A stretch of 25,081 nucleotides of DNA from Parcubacteria group bacterium (GCA_016188765.1 JACPHE010000003.1:1-25081), one strand, 5' to 3'. Numbered from the stretch's first letter, positions 2,433 to 24,937 are shown. Translations and numbers: made by a program. Notes: generated by a model not told the origin, from the sequence alone.

Positions 2433-4178
2433 AACTACAAATGGATTTTAACTGAACAGGCGCCGCCTGATTTTTTATCTAAATTTCCGGAATATCCGGC
2501 CGTGGTCTCGCAGTTGATTTTTAGCCGCGGTCTGGATACACCCGAAAAAATAAATCAATTTTTTAATCCCCAATATGAGACCGACCTTCACGACCCTTTT
2601 TTGCTTAAGGATATGGATAAGGCCTGTGAGCGCGTCAAACGCGCCGTAGGCCAAAAGGAAAAAATCGTAATTTATGCCGATTACGATGTGGACGGCGTTT
2701 CCGCGGCCACGGTTTTAGGCGAATATTTTAAAAACATAAATTATCCGTTTGAGGTTTACATGCCCGACCGCCAAAAAGAAGGCCATGGCGTTAACCGGGC
2801 CGCTTTAGAATCCATCATTTTGGCCGGCGCCAAACTGATAATAACTTTAGATTGCGGCACCACCAATGTAAAAGAAGTGGCTTGGGCCAAAAGTAAGGAA
2901 GTGGATATGATTGTGGCGGATCATCATCAGACCGTTTCCGGACGGCCCGAGGCGGCGGCTTTTATCAACCAGCATCAGGAAGGAGACAATTATCCGTTTA
3001 AGGGTTTGTGTGGTACGGGGTTAGCTTTTAAATTACACTGTGCCCTCCGAAGCTTTAGCGAAGGAGGGATTGGCTCAAATCAAAATCATGGACAGGAAAA
3101 ATGGCTTTTGGATCTTGTGGCTTTGGCCACGGTGGCTGATATGGCGCCTTTGTTGGATGAAAATAGGGTTTTGGTTAAACACGGCCTTTTTGTTTTGGCC
3201 AAAACCAAACGGCTGGGTTTAAAAAAGTTGATGGAGTCGGCCGGTGTTAAAGCCCGGCACGATTTAGGAACCCTATCTACAAATTTAGACAGTTTTACTT
3301 TGGGTTTTACATTGGGGCCGCGAATCAACGCCGCGAGCCGGATGGCGCACGCCAATCTGGCCTACGAACTTTTAACCAGCAACAACGAAGCCAAAATAGA
3401 CGAACTGGTTGTTTCTTTAAACGATAATAATCGCAAGCGCCAGCAGATTGTAGATAAGGTTTTGAAAGAGGTTAAGGCCAGAGTAGATGCTTATAAAGAA
3501 CTTCCCAGTTTTATTATGGAGGGTTCGGCAGATTGGTCGGTTAACCTTTTGGGTTTGGTGGCCTCCAAGATCACCGAAAAATATCACCGGCCGGTCATGT
3601 TGTACCAAATATCGCCCGAGGGCAAGTGCAAAGGATCCTTAAGAACTATCGCCGGTTTTGATTTGATGAAGGCCTTGGGTTCAGTCAGCGAAGATTTCAT
3701 CCAGTATGGCGGCCACCCAGACGCCGGCGGCTGTAGTTTTAAGGTGGTTAAGGCCGATAAAATAAAATCTGGCCTAAACAGTTATGCCGAAAATATTTTA
3801 ACGGCGGAGTTATTATTAAAAAAATTACAGATTGATATCGCGGTTTCACTTTCAGAAATAAGTTGGGGCTTGATTGATTGGTTGGATAAATTTAAACCCT
3901 GGGGCATGGCCAATTCTCGGCCAAAATTTGTTTCTAAAAATGTTTTGATCCAAAATGTTATTTTAATGGGCCAGCATCGGGAGCATTTAAAAATTATGGT
4001 TTCTGACTCAAGTATGATGAATAGACAATTGCCGTTACTAATGTTTCGGCATAACGGATTTGCTCAAAACCTAAAAATCGGCGACACTTTGGATATTGTC
4101 TACGAGGTTGATGTTAACGAATGGAACGGCAATAGAGAGATTCAGCTAATGCTGGTTGATTTTAAAAAATATGAATAA
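2430..4178 (+). CDS. recJ: Single-stranded-DNA-specific exonuclease RecJ
   Basis: IYADYDVDG, LIITLDCG, IVADHH (DHH motif), LDLVALATVAD, LGPRINAASR, GSLR and YGGH motifs. Start placed at MNYKW because the upstream ATGs lie inside the repeat cassette. Confidence 0.95.
   Translation: MNYKWILTEQAPPDFLSKFPEYPAVVSQLIFSRGLDTPEKINQFFNPQYETDLHDPFLLKDMDKACERVKRAVGQKEKIVIYADYDVDGVSAATVLGEYFKNINYPFEVYMPDRQKEGHGVNRAALESIILAGAKLIITLDCGTTNVKEVAWAKSKEVDMIVADHHQTVSGRPEAAAFINQHQEGDNYPFKGLCGTGLAFKLHCALRSFSEGGIGSNQNHGQEKWLLDLVALATVADMAPLLDENRVLVKHGLFVLAKTKRLGLKKLMESAGVKARHDLGTLSTNLDSFTLGFTLGPRINAASRMAHANLAYELLTSNNEAKIDELVVSLNDNNRKRQQIVDKVLKEVKARVDAYKELPSFIMEGSADWSVNLLGLVASKITEKYHRPVMLYQISPEGKCKGSLRTIAGFDLMKALGSVSEDFIQYGGHPDAGGCSFKVVKADKIKSGLNSYAENILTAELLLKKLQIDIAVSLSEISWGLIDWLDKFKPWGMANSRPKFVSKNVLIQNVILMGQHREHLKIMVSDSSMMNRQLPLLMFRHNGFAQNLKIGDTLDIVYEVDVNEWNGNREIQLMLVDFKKYE
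3043..3068. repeat. Short palindromic element in frame within recJ
   Basis: CCCTCCGAAGCTTTAGCGAAGGAGGG, nearly identical to 24312-24337. Confidence 0.7.
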
Positions 4179-4620
4179 AGAAAAAATTATTGTCTATGCC
4201 GATGGCGGTTCTAGGGGTAACCCCGGCCCGGCGGCGGTGGGGGTGGTGGTCTGCAATGAAAAGGGCCAGAAGATAAAAGAGTGCGGCCAGAAATTAGAAG
4301 AAATTTCCACCAACAACGAAGCCGAATACGAAGCGGTTATTTTCGCGCTAAAAAAATTAAAACAATTATTCGGCAAAGACAAAACTAAAAATTTGACTGT
4401 GGAGTTTAGAGTAGATAGCGAACTTATCGCTTCGCAGCTTTCCGGAGAATATAAAATCAACGAAGAGCGGATGCAGTTATTGTTTATGAAGGTTTGGAAT
4501 TTAAAGTTTGATTTCGGCCGGATGACTTTCAAGTCCATTCCGCGCGAACAAAACAAACGGGCGGATGAATTGGTTAATCTGGCCTTAGATGGCCAAGGCG
4601 AGACGGTAAAAATGATTTGA
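4171..4620 (+). CDS. rnhA: Ribonuclease HI
   Basis: YADGGSRGNPGPAAVG, TNNEAEYEA, DSELI and PREQNKRADELVN motifs. ATG 4171 overlaps the recJ stop. Confidence 0.92.
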   Translation: MNKEKIIVYADGGSRGNPGPAAVGVVVCNEKGQKIKECGQKLEEISTNNEAEYEAVIFALKKLKQLFGKDKTKNLTVEFRVDSELIASQLSGEYKINEERMQLLFMKVWNLKFDFGRMTFKSIPREQNKRADELVNLALDGQGETVKMI

Positions 4621-4644
4621 CTTTTTATTGTGGATAAGTATAAT
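4617..4644 (+). promoter_or_regulatory. Sigma70-type promoter of rnpB
   Basis: TTGACT (4617-4622), 16-nt spacer, TATAAT (4639-4644), directly upstream of the P1 5' strand. Confidence 0.7.
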
Positions 4645-23770: not shown

Positions 23771-23857
23771 AATTCCGGAAAACTCGGAATAACTCAGAAT
23801 GTCAGAGTATCTGATTATCAGATGTTCTGATTTCTCTGACCCGCCGAGTTTTCCGAG
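23771..23857. repeat. ~9-nt-period inverted-repeat cassette between aspS and scpA
   Basis: Arms CGGAAAACTCGG / CCGAGTTTTCCG, ACTCGGAAA-type units and a central palindrome ATCTGAT-T-ATCAGAT. Confidence 0.7.
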
Positions 23858-24937
23858 TCATTCCGATTTATTTATTTTTAACCCCAGTTCCTTTAACTGT
23901 TCCTGTGTAATTTCGGAGGGCGAGCCCATCATTAAGTCGCGCCCGTCACCGGTTTTGGGAAAAGCAAAAACCTCGCGGATGTTGGGTTCGCCCGCCAAGA
24001 TCATCACCAAGCGGTCAATTCCGGGCGCGATGCCGCCGTGGGGCGGCGCGCCGTAAGCCAAGGCCGAGAGCATATGGCCAAAATTCTTTATAATTTTTTC
24101 TTCGCCTAAGCCCATAATTTCAAAAACCTTTTTTAAGGGTTCGGGTTTATGGTTTCTAATGCTCCCCCCGCCCACTTCAAAGCCGTTTAGCACAATGTCG
24201 TACTGGGTGGTTAAAATTTCGCCGATATTTTCTTTTTTCATCAGCCAATCCAGATGTTCCGGCTTGGGCGCGGAAAACGGGTTATGTGTAAAGGTCCATT
24301 CGGTTTTCTTGCCCTCCGTAGCTTTAGCGGAGGAGGGTTCAAAGAAGGGAAAATCAATCACCCAGCCAAAAGCCAATAGATCCAGGTTGTTTTTGTCTTT
24401 TCTAAAGTCCGGCCTATCCGTGCCGTATTTTTCCATGGCTTCTTGGTAAGATATTCTCGGAAAAGGAATTTCTTGGATTTTTTTGTAGGGCGTTATTTTT
24501 TTAACCAGATCAATCAGTAACTTTTCGGTCAAGGCCATCACATCTTCTCTATCCACAAAAGACATCTCCAAGTCCAATTGGGTAAATTCGGGTTGCCTAT
24601 CGCCCCGAGTATCTTCGTCCCTAAAACATCGGGCGATTTGAAAATATCTTTCAAATCCGGCTACCATCAATAACTGCTTATATTGTTGGGGGCTTTGGGG
24701 CAGGGCGTAAAACTTGCCTGTCTCGCGGCGCGAAGGCACCACATAATCGCGCGCGCCTTCGGGCGTGGATTTGGTTAAAATCGGGGTTTCAATTTCTATA
24801 AAATCCTTAGCGGCCAACCATTGCCTGATAAACTGGACAACTTCGTGCCGCAAGCGGATATTTTTTTGCAACCGCGGGCGCAATAAATCAAGGTAGCGGT
24901 ATTTAAGCCGTGTTTCCTCGCCTATTTCCATCGGCAA
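23858..24937 (-). CDS. aspS: Aspartate--tRNA ligase, catalytic portion (short form without GAD domain; N-terminal OB domain out of frame)
   Basis: RLKYRYLDL, IETPILTKSTPEGARDY, LPQSPQQYKQ, CFRDEDTRGDRQPEFTQLDLEM, YDIVLNGFEVGGGSIR, APPHGGIAPGIDR. Confidence 0.93.
   Translation of the reverse strand: MPMEIGEETRLKYRYLDLLRPRLQKNIRLRHEVVQFIRQWLAAKDFIEIETPILTKSTPEGARDYVVPSRRETGKFYALPQSPQQYKQLLMVAGFERYFQIARCFRDEDTRGDRQPEFTQLDLEMSFVDREDVMALTEKLLIDLVKKITPYKKIQEIPFPRISYQEAMEKYGTDRPDFRKDKNNLDLLAFGWVIDFPFFEPSSAKATEGKKTEWTFTHNPFSAPKPEHLDWLMKKENIGEILTTQYDIVLNGFEVGGGSIRNHKPEPLKKVFEIMGLGEEKIIKNFGHMLSALAYGAPPHGGIAPGIDRLVMILAGEPNIREVFAFPKTGDGRDLMMGSPSEITQEQLKELGLKINKSE
24312..24337. repeat. Short palindromic element in frame within aspS
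   Basis: CCCTCCGTAGCTTTAGCGGAGGAGGG, encoding PSSAKATEG on the minus strand. Confidence 0.7.

Follow-up and report, generated by a model that had tools for sequence, protein, structure and literature searches.

A cosmopolitan family of miniature directional hairpins in protein and RNase P RNA genes of an ultra-small bacterium, with its home beside a small GIY-YIG gene

Ssn nucleases of the GIY-YIG type cleave single-stranded DNA beside cognate directional hairpin repeats that flank their own genes (PMC11893778, Chenal et al. 2025, Nat Commun). This Ssn/SRM pairing is the closest known system to the hairpin family described here. Rickettsia palindromic elements (RPEs) were reportedly found by Ogata et al. 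in 2000 to lie in frame in functional protein genes and in stable-RNA genes, adding surface peptide segments to the proteins. RPEs measure approximately 100 to 150 bp and are confined to Rickettsia, and we know of no transposase for them. They are also mentioned by Di Nocera et al. 2013 (PMC3733652), whose account of REPs describes GTAG- and CGTC-tagged repeats inside genes, the tag lying at one end of the palindrome. The free-standing GIY-YIG homing endonuclease SegB of phage T4 is encoded near tRNA genes (PMC2330249).

The window, by which we mean the whole 25,081-nt stretch of DNA analyzed here (Parcubacteria group bacterium GCA_016188765.1 JACPHE010000003.1:1-25081), comes from a tiny, uncultivated member of the Patescibacteria with a genome of 503 kb (~0.5 Mb). 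The original prediction placed seven short palindromes in this window, and 7/7 were found where they had been placed, with the peptides LRSFSEGG, PSSAKATEG, and SPRLGVAGG being true in-frame readings. Each element is ~30 nt, slightly longer than predicted, because a non-palindromic 5' tag is included. The host genes named recJ, gltX, and aspS encode RecJ, GluRS, and AspRS by Pfam, and the identity of rnpB also stands (RF00010, 64.2 bits, E 5e-19), the insertions keeping its score under the gathering cut-off of 100. Two further degenerate minus-strand copies in rnpB (5346–5389 and 4792–4834) bring the features of the window to the following, where R1 denotes subtype 1.

2409–4178, plus strand: recJ host gene, with DHH, DHHA1, and RecJ_OB domains (Pfam)
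3039–3068, plus strand: R1 element, 30 nt, sense and in frame in recJ, reads ALRSFSEGG; 45.9 bits, E 5.9e-11 (window)
4653–5450, plus strand: rnpB (bacterial type-A RNase P RNA), ~800 nt, ends approximate; RF00010 over 4897–5269
4722–4880, plus strand: module A, a ~155-nt imperfect hairpin whose apex holds a pair of adjacent family elements
4767–4794, plus strand: R1 element in module A, 38.0 bits; 28-mer (D17) identical to 5320–5347
4792–4834, minus strand: degenerate long-variant R1, second apex hairpin of module A; 14.2 bits, E 0.043; from the fold
5030–5057, minus strand: R1 element, reverse, 45.5 bits; in a ~76-nt P12 hairpin-loop extension (cmscan alignment)
5276–5432, plus strand: module B, paralogous to module A, inserted between the 3' strands of P2 and P4
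5320–5347, plus strand: R1 element in module B, 36.2 bits; 28-mer repeated at 4767–4794
5346–5389, minus strand: long-variant R1, second apex hairpin of module B; 22.1 bits, E 0.00026; from the structure scan
11533–11564, plus strand: subtype-2 hairpin, 32 nt, intergenic, 25 nt 3' of the lepA stop codon; 9.4 bits against R1
15181–16575, minus strand: gltX host gene (Pfam tRNA-synt_1c, Anticodon_2)
15844–15869, plus strand: short subtype-2 hairpin in gltX, a net 24-nt (8-codon) in-frame insertion, reads SPRLGVAG
23858–24937, minus strand: aspS host gene, catalytic part (Pfam tRNA-synt_2)
24308–24337, plus strand: R1 element, 30 nt with the CTTG tag counted, antisense to aspS, reads PSSAKATEGK; 49.4 bits

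R1 is a directional 30-nt hairpin in which a CTTG-like tag precedes a covarying 6-bp stem and a near-invariant center. The 5' tag, CTTG or at least TG, is non-palindromic, and the 5' flank consensus in an alignment of 32 copies (alignment A1, with 12 invariant columns), ...TTG-YCCNCC..., has no mirror on the 3' side. The GC-rich outer stem varies in sequence while remaining 94% paired (35 to 47% when the partner is slid), and it contains 37 doubly changed cells versus 12.3 in shuffles. As a single strand, the almost invariant center, G(A/T)A-GC-TTTA-GC-G(A/G)A, forms a symmetric 3x3 internal loop of purines topped by an apex of 2 bp and a 4-nt loop, and in longer R1 variants the apex alone is extended. 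Subtype 2 has the same build, with the tag GCCCGC and a 3x2 loop; its pattern matched 17 times in 9/61 genomes (reversed control, 0), and a copy identical to 11533–11564 lies at C45:6884–6915. Most copies measure 26 to 51 nt, with nested ones (C36:491–568 and C25:11774–11845) reaching up to 78 nt. The whole unit is one hairpin; a MITE is defined by terminal inverted repeats together with a target-site duplication.

Shuffled-sequence, genome-wide, and orthologue comparisons had been proposed with the original prediction, and these bear out the hairpin family and its insertion. A degenerate 24-mer allowed up to 3 mismatches matched 3 times in the window versus 0.00 times in 100 dinucleotide shuffles, indicating that the hairpins are not chance occurrences, and a covariance model of R1 found 35 matches (E ≤ 0.05) in the 503-kb genome. 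Among these copies, 11/35 (31%) are in frame in 8 Pfam-identified genes, namely those for RpoC, AspS, RecJ, RecR, RelA/SpoT, RsmH, and two other proteins, and 4/35 lie inside rnpB. A 125-nt composite that holds copies is found upstream of genes in three instances. The orthologues revealed both empty sites and independent insertions. The recJ insertion occupies a variable loop; four family relatives (L003, L006, L008, and L009) have a short, empty loop there, and recJ of G009 and G010 carries an element of the same family that faces the other way and lies 6 codons downstream. In gltX, the insert immediately follows the KLSKR signature loop and is absent from 13/13 aligned orthologues, which present a clean empty site. 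The 30-nt insert of aspS lies between FFE and KT in comparison with eight short-loop orthologues, and in G004, G008, and G009 the same loop holds a long variant in reversed orientation. RpoC has three insertion sites, all absent in G001. No target-site duplication or conserved target was seen (no duplication at aspS, a possible, ambiguous GGC at gltX), the relatives being too diverged for base-exact junctions.

rnpB is approximately twice as long as in relatives, in which it spans 338 to 585 nt, and its P4 strands and P1 pairing can be read from the sequence. Module A (fold of −63 kcal/mol, z −4.1) replaces the short hairpin that relatives have after the P4 5' strand and is absent in the 7 other aligned rnpB genes; it shares direct repeats D8, D12, and D17 and 76% identity with module B (−60.2 kcal/mol, z −3.6). 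The module B site holds the same module in G004, two different family elements in G005, and a short hairpin alone in G001 and G003. The P12 extension and its element are likewise present in G004, and all three rnpB insertions are absent in G001. Ten-codon open-frame units persist in variable surface loops of essential proteins; other copies occupy the apical loops of hairpins at the periphery of RNase P RNA, are nested within each other, or are intergenic. The prediction of a REP-sized dispersed hairpin family, inserted as discrete in-frame units that add loops, is therefore upheld for surface loops of essential proteins and for peripheral hairpins of RNase P RNA.

The family extends well beyond this genome. 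Among 61 class relatives, the R1 model found 391 matches in 42/61 genomes, with 0 to 44 per genome and none in G011 and G012, which belong to the same order, and the 15-mer core matched 113 times in 31/61 related genomes (reversed control, 0). An exact 29-nt pattern gave at least 121 matches in records labelled as many phyla and was present in multiple copies in one genome each of Pirellulales (at least 66), Verrucomicrobia (at least 39), Chitinophagaceae (at least 33), Acidobacteriota (at least 13), and Bradyrhizobium (at least 3). Viral contigs also hold the element as solo copies, and no GIY-YIG open reading frame was found within 400 nt of it at 8 such viral loci. As judged by sequence comparison, the dispersed hairpins constitute one cosmopolitan family of miniature directional DNA elements inserted as discrete units. 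The RPE analogy drawn by the original prediction consequently holds in part: insertion in frame in functional protein genes, and in RNA genes, is common to both, whereas the present family is not lineage specific, since the 29-nt pattern occurs in many phyla, and its units are 30 nt, RPE size being reached by the two composite rnpB modules (~155 nt) alone.

The home of the element is a cassette at the 3' end of a tmRNA or tRNA gene. On contig C11 of the genome (G000), tmRNA is followed by two hairpins and a 77-aa GIY-YIG gene (C11:1692–1922), and on C50 the same hairpin pair follows tRNA-Ala without a nuclease gene. The cassette consists of a reverse hairpin, an AT-rich spacer, a forward hairpin, and the gene for the 77-residue, single-domain GIY-YIG protein, which starts 3 to 50 nt past the hairpin. 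An R1 hairpin lies within 150 nt upstream of the start codon at 12 of the best 30 GIY-YIG loci, versus ~0.15 expected from hairpin density. The closest homologues (55 to 100% identity) have a hairpin, in the orientation of the gene, in 8/8 cases versus 4/22 for more distant ones, which points to a specific pairing with one nuclease subfamily, and the same adjacency occurs in a Chitinophagaceae and a Verrucomicrobia genome. A GIY-YIG gene is present in 40/42 hairpin-bearing genomes, and gene number correlates with hairpin number (Spearman 0.45 overall and 0.41 outside the home family), a correlation that is overstated because kin are not independent. Copy number follows the nuclease only loosely, as G048 has 31 hairpins and 2 GIY-YIG genes and G021 has 11 and 1; in G016 (6 hairpins) and G023 (9 hairpins), no GIY-YIG gene was found with the query used. 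The genome carries 4 mini GIY-YIG genes, and two others of these, on contig C44, have a hairpin of their own without solo copies.

Based on this association, we lean, by a narrow margin of belief, toward a cosmopolitan hairpin family with a home GIY-YIG cassette, whose candidate nuclease disperses or maintains the solo hairpins. By analogy to Ssn and its NTS/SRM repeats, the putative nuclease would recognize the folded hairpin and tag in single-stranded DNA, and cutting followed by host repair or copying may then disperse or maintain solo hairpins, which would stand to the cassette as REPs do to the RAYT gene. That the nuclease moves the hairpin is what we infer from these relationships. GIY-YIG enzymes cut DNA and, to our knowledge, are not known to rejoin it, which counts against the proposal at the insertion step.

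The comparison with Ssn/SRM shows both likeness and difference. Shared traits are a small, single-domain GIY-YIG gene adjoining a hairpin repeat of 20 to 50 nt, a repeat direction that is set by a conserved non-palindromic flank, and many copies per genome across phyla. However, the tag is CTTG or TG here and (C)GTC in the Ssn repeats as described in PMC11893778; the hairpin here is upstream alone, whereas that description gives an NTS-ssnA-NTS arrangement, with repeats on both sides, for 42% of homologues; and 31% of copies here are in frame in protein genes, as opposed to 2% of NTS reported there inside genes. A search for hairpins on both sides of the gene gave upstream hits alone, save for one locus with a hit 147 nt downstream, and no hairpin was visible in the 120 nt downstream of the gene in 12 cassettes. 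The published SRM motif (HGTCWY...RNCYNB) had one match in the genome versus 1.3 in Markov simulations, and this match lay neither at an R1 copy nor close to any of the 4 mini GIY-YIG genes. The cassette also differs from Ssn in its position at tRNA/tmRNA 3' ends and in the relatives of its nuclease, which matched Pfam PF01541 alone and returned nothing in an NCBIfam search; the nearest solved structures are the UPF0213 proteins 1zg2 (E 6.6e-7) and 1ywl, so the nuclease may lie outside the Ssn clade, whose CDD family is cd10448. SegB likewise is a small GIY-YIG gene in or beside tRNA genes, but SegB has a DNA-binding domain and spreads by homing, and it is not known to have a dispersed hairpin family.

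A bolder form of the same proposal, which we hold tentatively, is that a UPF0213-type mini GIY-YIG nuclease residing at tRNA/tmRNA 3' ends has as its cognate DNA the 30-nt directional hairpin, with its 15-nt core unchanged in more than 10 phyla. The pair could then constitute a second system of nuclease and hairpin, alongside Ssn/SRM and RAYT/REP, in which ten-codon hairpins may be copied into single-stranded DNA anywhere in the genome, so that RNA polymerase, aminoacyl-tRNA synthetases, and RNase P RNA would routinely gain loops. No description of such a UPF0213-type nuclease/hairpin system was found in the literature searched.

Alternatively, the hairpins may spread without a dedicated enzyme, through host processes such as gene conversion between copies, template switching at hairpins, or recombination with foreign DNA that has been taken up, with the GIY-YIG cassette merely carrying a copy as a terminator, as expression control, or as a mark or protection of its homing site at tRNA ends. 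Many genomes have hairpins that far outnumber nuclease genes, or no such gene was found in them, and the viral copies are solo. The hairpin upstream of the cassette gene could indeed be a regulatory or terminator structure, a role made plausible by its location solely before the nuclease start codon. Furthermore, the two rnpB modules contain identical 28-mers but are 76% alike elsewhere, which suggests gene conversion, and, from general knowledge, we know of no strand-transfer activity among GIY-YIG enzymes. However, a 15-nt core that stays constant in many phyla, next to a stem that varies and covaries, argues for some conserved factor that recognizes it in a sequence-specific manner, the 8/8 adjacency speaks for a specific pairing, and slippage does not produce discrete units that keep one length at unrelated sites. 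Host processes on their own are thus an unlikely, if serviceable, explanation.

The hairpin could also be a host-beneficial motif under selection, such as a protein binding site, an RNA stabilizer or terminator, or an NTS-like control of transformation, rather than selfish DNA. Conservation of the core across phyla, copies at tRNA/tmRNA 3' ends, and copies upstream of genes in the 125-nt composite (three instances) are in keeping with this idea, and NTS hairpins are described as modulating transformation in Neisseria (PMC11893778). Copies lie in both orientations relative to transcription, however, so that no single RNA structure is kept; distribution is patchy, with 0 to 44 copies among close relatives and none in G011 and G012; and positions differ among close relatives inside the same loop, so positional non-conservation is largely the case already. 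Loop copies in RpoC, AspRS, and GluRS have no plausible regulatory role, and we consider a selected motif improbable.

The resemblance to REPs is considerable, as these are also imperfect palindromes of 20 to 40 nt with a short tag at one end and many copies, some of them inside replication, repair, and tRNA synthetase genes (PMC3733652), and in both cases solo repeats relate to a repeat-flanked enzyme gene. In contrast to REPs, which PMC3733652 describes as species-specific families, the sequence here is conserved across phyla, and the copies are not mainly extragenic (11/35 in frame in protein genes and 4/35 in rnpB). Tag and core also differ, the flank being (C)TTG with no terminal GTAG or CGTC tag; GTAG does occur in half of the hairpins but alternates with GAAG and lies inside the internal loop, not at the end (alignment A1). 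The associated enzyme is a GIY-YIG nuclease, and the only Y1 gene owns another palindrome. This gene (C56:2723–3382) encodes a 220-aa transposase-like protein (PF01797, 32.5 bits, above the cut-off; 22 bits, under the cut-off of 80, against the NCBIfam REP-associated tyrosine transposase model) and is flanked by, and contains in frame, the palindrome CCCAGACGTCCGACRTCTGGG, which has 5 copies in the genome. Y1 orthologues in 7 relatives have their own (covarying) palindromes at the same positions, none of which is the R1 hairpin, and no R1 core was found at Y1 loci save two loose core-regex matches (L056 and L063) away from the Y1 gene. Relatives have up to 8 Y1 copies, but Y1 number barely follows hairpin number (Spearman 0.28 overall, falling to 0.10 when the home family is left out): G048 (31 hairpins) and G035 (27) have no Y1 match, and G018 has 8 Y1 matches and no hairpin. 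In keeping with the original prediction that the mobilizing enzyme is not encoded in the window, no candidate was found in these 25 kb, but the proposal of REP-like elements mobilized in trans by an HUH Y1 transposase (RAYT or IS200/IS605 TnpA type) is very improbable and was rejected, since the sole Y1 gene owns a different palindrome, even though REPs within genes are documented (PMC3733652).

A 30-nt element whose letters hardly differ between phyla serves as a marker of horizontal exchange. The inserts push rnpB under the Rfam threshold in 9/21 genomes searched, and spurious low-complexity peptides in core proteins affect annotation, alignment, and phylogenomics of these lineages. If the proposed link between the hairpin and the nuclease holds, a candidate enzyme would be named for tiny in-frame hairpin insertions, a class so far without one, and the recently found GIY-YIG/hairpin partnership of Ssn would take in another nuclease branch and reach into the Candidate Phyla Radiation. 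The widespread UPF0213 family would gain its first function if the bolder form is true, and the link, if it holds, would explain why ultra-small genomes have odd extra loops in their essential proteins and RNase P RNA.

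All seven palindromes described by the original prediction are present in the window at their positions, and the peptides quoted for them are true in-frame readings of the genes. The hosts named, recJ, gltX, and aspS, are backed by Pfam (RecJ, GluRS, and AspRS), and the rnpB gene (4653-5450) is a type-A RNase P RNA that, because of its insertions, scores 64 bits against an Rfam threshold of 100. As for copy number, the listed copies stand, but R1, our covariance model of the subtype-1 hairpin, adds two more (seven matches at E<0.05). A chance origin of the palindromes is excluded. 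A degenerate 24-mer matched the window three times versus 0.00 times in 100 shuffles, and a 15-nt core matched 113 times across 31 of the 61 related genomes, its reversed control never. Rfam returned no family at any hairpin, either across the whole window at gathering thresholds or at E<=10 over 4500-5600, and on six further element-bearing loci it returned none except tRNA and tmRNA. Two other features of the window are recorded here. A perfect palindrome at 12554-12596 (20-bp stem, 3-nt loop), unrelated in sequence to the family studied, ends 17 nt upstream of a glycosyltransferase gene starting at 12613. Within 24850-25081, the reading frame of aspS (minus strand) differs between its N-terminal OB-fold part and its catalytic part. 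The junction, 150 nt away from the end of the contig, lacks ~36 codons found in orthologues, and either the gene is truly disrupted or the assembly is wrong here.

The structure of the hairpin was drawn from 32 aligned subtype-1 copies: five lie in the window, and five genomes of other families supplied the other 27. Because every copy was picked by exact core only, the flanks are unselected. Twelve columns of the alignment, whose consensus is nTTnnTTGCCCnCC-GTAGCTTTAGCGAAGG-nGGG, are invariant. Pairing reaches 94% over the six outer pairs, doubly changed cells in this outer stem number 37 versus 12.3 ± 2.5 in shuffles, and sliding the 3' partner lowers pairing to 35-47%. From the alignment and these statistics, the unit is defined as a 5' tag (CTTG, at minimum TG, with no 3' mirror), a 6-bp stem that varies with compensation, a pair of 3-nt purine loops opposite each other (G(A/T)A and G(A/G)A), and, inside these, a GC/GC step and a TTTA loop. 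Its length of 30 nt equals ten codons, and the long variants (contigs C2, C11, C28, C47, and C50) are extended at the apex only. Subtype 2 is built alike, with GCCCGC as its tag and a loop of 3x2. R1 matches it poorly (9.4 bits), but it constitutes a separate family, its own pattern giving 17 matches in 9 of 61 genomes (control, 0). A scan by structure alone (stem, GNA loop, inner stem) discriminated weakly, yielding 30 matches versus 8-10 in Markov-simulated sequence, and the covariance model, built from the 32-copy alignment, took its place. K-turn and archaeal-type bulge-helix-bulge readings were dropped because the two 3-nt loops oppose each other. A function at the RNA level is unlikely, since copies run both ways relative to transcription.

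Comparison with orthologues shows that these hairpins are polymorphic insertions, and the empty sites anticipated by the original prediction were found in all three proteins. In GluRS, the 8-codon segment after the KLSKR loop is absent from 13 of 13 aligned orthologues. In AspRS of the home genome (G000), a clean insert of 30 nt separates FFE from KT where eight orthologues have a short loop, and the same loop in G004, G008, and G009 holds a long variant in the opposite orientation. RecJ has a short loop in four relatives, and in G009 and G010 it carries an element of the same family, oppositely oriented, six codons downstream of the G000 site. All three element-bearing regions of RpoC are variable loops, none of which is present in G001; one insertion site is common to G000, G006, and G005, and some insertions are therefore older. 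Similarly, rnpB of G001 is without all three insertions, that of G004 shares module B and the element-bearing P12 extension with G000, and in that of G005 the module-B site is occupied by two different elements of the family. Modules A (4722..4880) and B (5276..5432) each fold into a single long hairpin whose apex holds two elements, and are 76% alike, yet both hold an identical 28-mer. No conserved target was found in the aligned GluRS and AspRS orthologues, and no clear target-site duplication: none is seen at aspS, and a possible GGC at gltX is ambiguous, the relatives being too diverged to place junctions to the base.

The window makes up the entire contig C10 of the home genome (503 kb, 58 contigs, 44.7% G+C), whose nearest named relatives belong to the Minisyncoccia/Parcubacteria group of Patescibacteria. 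Across this genome, R1 finds 35 copies at E<=0.05. Eleven of these are in frame, in eight Pfam-identified genes.

In-frame hosts in G000 (Pfam and R1)
RpoC, four copies
AspRS
RecJ
RecR
RelA/SpoT homologue
RsmH
Class-V aminotransferase
Family-2 glycosyltransferase

Nine of the 11 in-frame copies are antisense to the host gene, and eight use a single frame, read roughly as (S/F)AKA(T/S)(E/A)(G/D). The element carries a stop codon in one frame per orientation, so that four of six frames are open. Another four copies are in rnpB, and the other 20 are intergenic or within short unconfirmed ORFs. Elements also nest within the apical loops of other elements (C36:491-568 and C25:11774-11845). A ~125-nt composite, in which a 45-nt spacer separates a reverse hairpin from the forward hairpin after it, occurs three times (C8:9085-9200, C18:1050-1165, and C51:7405-7535) in the layout of the nuclease cassettes described below, without the gene; two composites lie just upstream of ORFs that by eye resemble genes for a type IV pilus/T2SS platform protein and for ribosomal protein S3. 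The genome holds at least four more palindrome families: one of ~34 nt centered on CGATCG (at least eight copies, e.g., C8:13862, C44:3582, and C53:11890), two of 25 nt, of the types CGGATTGAAGT...ACTTCAATCCG (five copies) and AACGGCTCAACG...GAGCCGTT (three copies), and one of 15 nt, YCGCGTNNNACGCGR (at least 12 copies).

The spread of the family extends well beyond this genome. R1 gave 391 matches in 42 of 61 genomes of the class, at 0-44 copies each, with zero in the two genomes that share the order but not the family. In the collection of species-representative genomes, at least 121 stretches match the 29-nt pattern exactly, and among the 80 loci listed, Patescibacteria are not the sole bearers: by record titles, these include Verrucomicrobiota, Bacteroidota, Planctomycetota, Acidobacteriota, Nitrospirota-like bacteria, Armatimonadota, Omnitrophota, and Proteobacteria, including two Bradyrhizobium isolates. 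Flanks are unrelated at all of the listed loci. In five genomes from other phyla, with scoring limited to 150 candidates per genome out of as many as 2,446, R1 copies number at least 66, 39, 33, 13, and 3. Hairpins of the Chitinophagaceae genome stand in tandem runs; one head-to-tail run (G063:C3:95030-95545) has nine matches 29-61 nt apart over 95030-95301 and one further match at 95507. The 29-nt pattern is also present in seven viral contigs, and no GIY-YIG ORF was found within 400 nt of the element at eight viral loci.

The R1 hairpin has a fixed place before one subfamily of mini GIY-YIG nuclease genes, at the ends of tRNA and tmRNA genes. Four mini GIY-YIG genes are present in G000, among them the following:

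C11:1692-1922, minus strand: 77-aa GIY-YIG gene, motifs intact, directly after the tmRNA gene

The interval between the tmRNA and this gene opens, right at the tmRNA 3' end, with a reverse long-variant hairpin; a spacer follows, and then a forward hairpin of canonical form, 15 nt short of the nuclease start codon. C50 has the same pair of hairpins after tRNA-Ala, without the nuclease gene. In relatives, an R1 hairpin lies within 150 nt upstream of the start in 12 of the best 30 homologous loci, against ~0.15 loci expected by chance as estimated from hairpin density. All of the eight closest homologues (55-100% identity) have one 3-50 nt upstream in the orientation of the gene, versus 4 of 22 more distant homologues. 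ARAGORN placed a tRNA or tmRNA 3' end against the first hairpin in 6 of the 12 cassettes, and in another three the terminal sequence of the tmRNA 3' end can be recognized by eye. R1 hairpins also precede the best homologue in both the Chitinophagaceae and a Verrucomicrobia genome. GIY-YIG and hairpin numbers are correlated, with rho at 0.45 overall and at 0.41 when the home family is set aside, and a GIY-YIG gene is present in 40 of the 42 genomes that bear hairpins; these figures overstate the case because related genomes are not independent. Elsewhere in G000 (C44:1300-2110), an intact tRNA gene lies between two tRNA copies whose D-loops are each interrupted by a 29-nt hairpin and which are each followed by a mini GIY-YIG gene; no solo copies of that hairpin were found elsewhere in the genome.

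Rickettsia palindromic elements, the analogy first offered, are larger and lineage-bound. The likeness holds for in-frame insertion, for which they are a functional analogue, but not for size or confinement to a lineage. The closest published system is Ssn, in which small single-domain GIY-YIG nucleases cut single-stranded DNA beside directional NTS/SRM hairpin repeats; these repeats border the nuclease genes on both sides and are found across phyla by the hundreds, with 2% of NTS copies within genes (PMC11893778). Gene-hairpin adjacency and hairpin directionality are shared. However, R1 hairpins differ in lying solely upstream of the nuclease gene and in the proportion of in-gene copies (31% versus 2%), and the nearest solved relatives of the R1-linked nuclease are UPF0213 proteins. 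The published SRM motif matched G000 once versus 1.3 expected, and never at the elements. REPs inside repair and synthetase genes are on record (PMC3733652), but the R1 hairpin differs from REPs in tag and location and has no cognate gene of that kind in G000. In the literature searched, which covers papers readable without a subscription, we found no earlier description of the R1 element. No paper contains the core string (either strand or RNA), none was found that deals with palindromes or REPs of CPR, Patescibacteria, or Parcubacteria, and for GIY-YIG with hairpins at tRNA genes only Ssn and T4 SegB came up.

We infer that the nuclease may recognize the hairpin, folded, in single-stranded DNA, and that the enzyme would drive or maintain its dispersal. 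We lean somewhat toward this account as a whole, a hairpin family with a GIY-YIG nuclease that recognizes and disperses it. Against the role of the nuclease, some genomes are hairpin rich with few or no GIY-YIG genes, no GIY-YIG enzyme is known to rejoin DNA, and the upstream hairpin could simply regulate its cassette. Spread through host processes, without a dedicated enzyme, is possible but rather doubtful, and a motif selected by the host is improbable. Mobilization by a Y1 (HUH) transposase of the RAYT form, as originally proposed, is very unlikely: the sole Y1 gene of G000 (C56:2723-3382) bears another palindrome, of 21 nt (upstream, downstream, and once in frame within the ORF), in seven relatives (L054-L060) the orthologue bears palindromes at three to five matching positions, with a sequence that changes from genome to genome, so that they covary within each locus, hairpin-rich G048 (31 hairpins) and G035 (27 hairpins) gave no Y1 match, and Y1 and hairpin numbers outside the home family are uncorrelated (rho 0.10). 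This RAYT-like gene, of 220 aa, lies between uvrC and uvrA, in the region C56:2650-3420 (locus L052 1224-1979).

Finally, of the 21 genomes searched, 9, most of them from the home family, have an RNase P RNA that scores too low for the Rfam gathering cutoff, and in the aligned cases the low scores are due to hairpin insertions. In such genomes, the gene will be missed by annotation pipelines.
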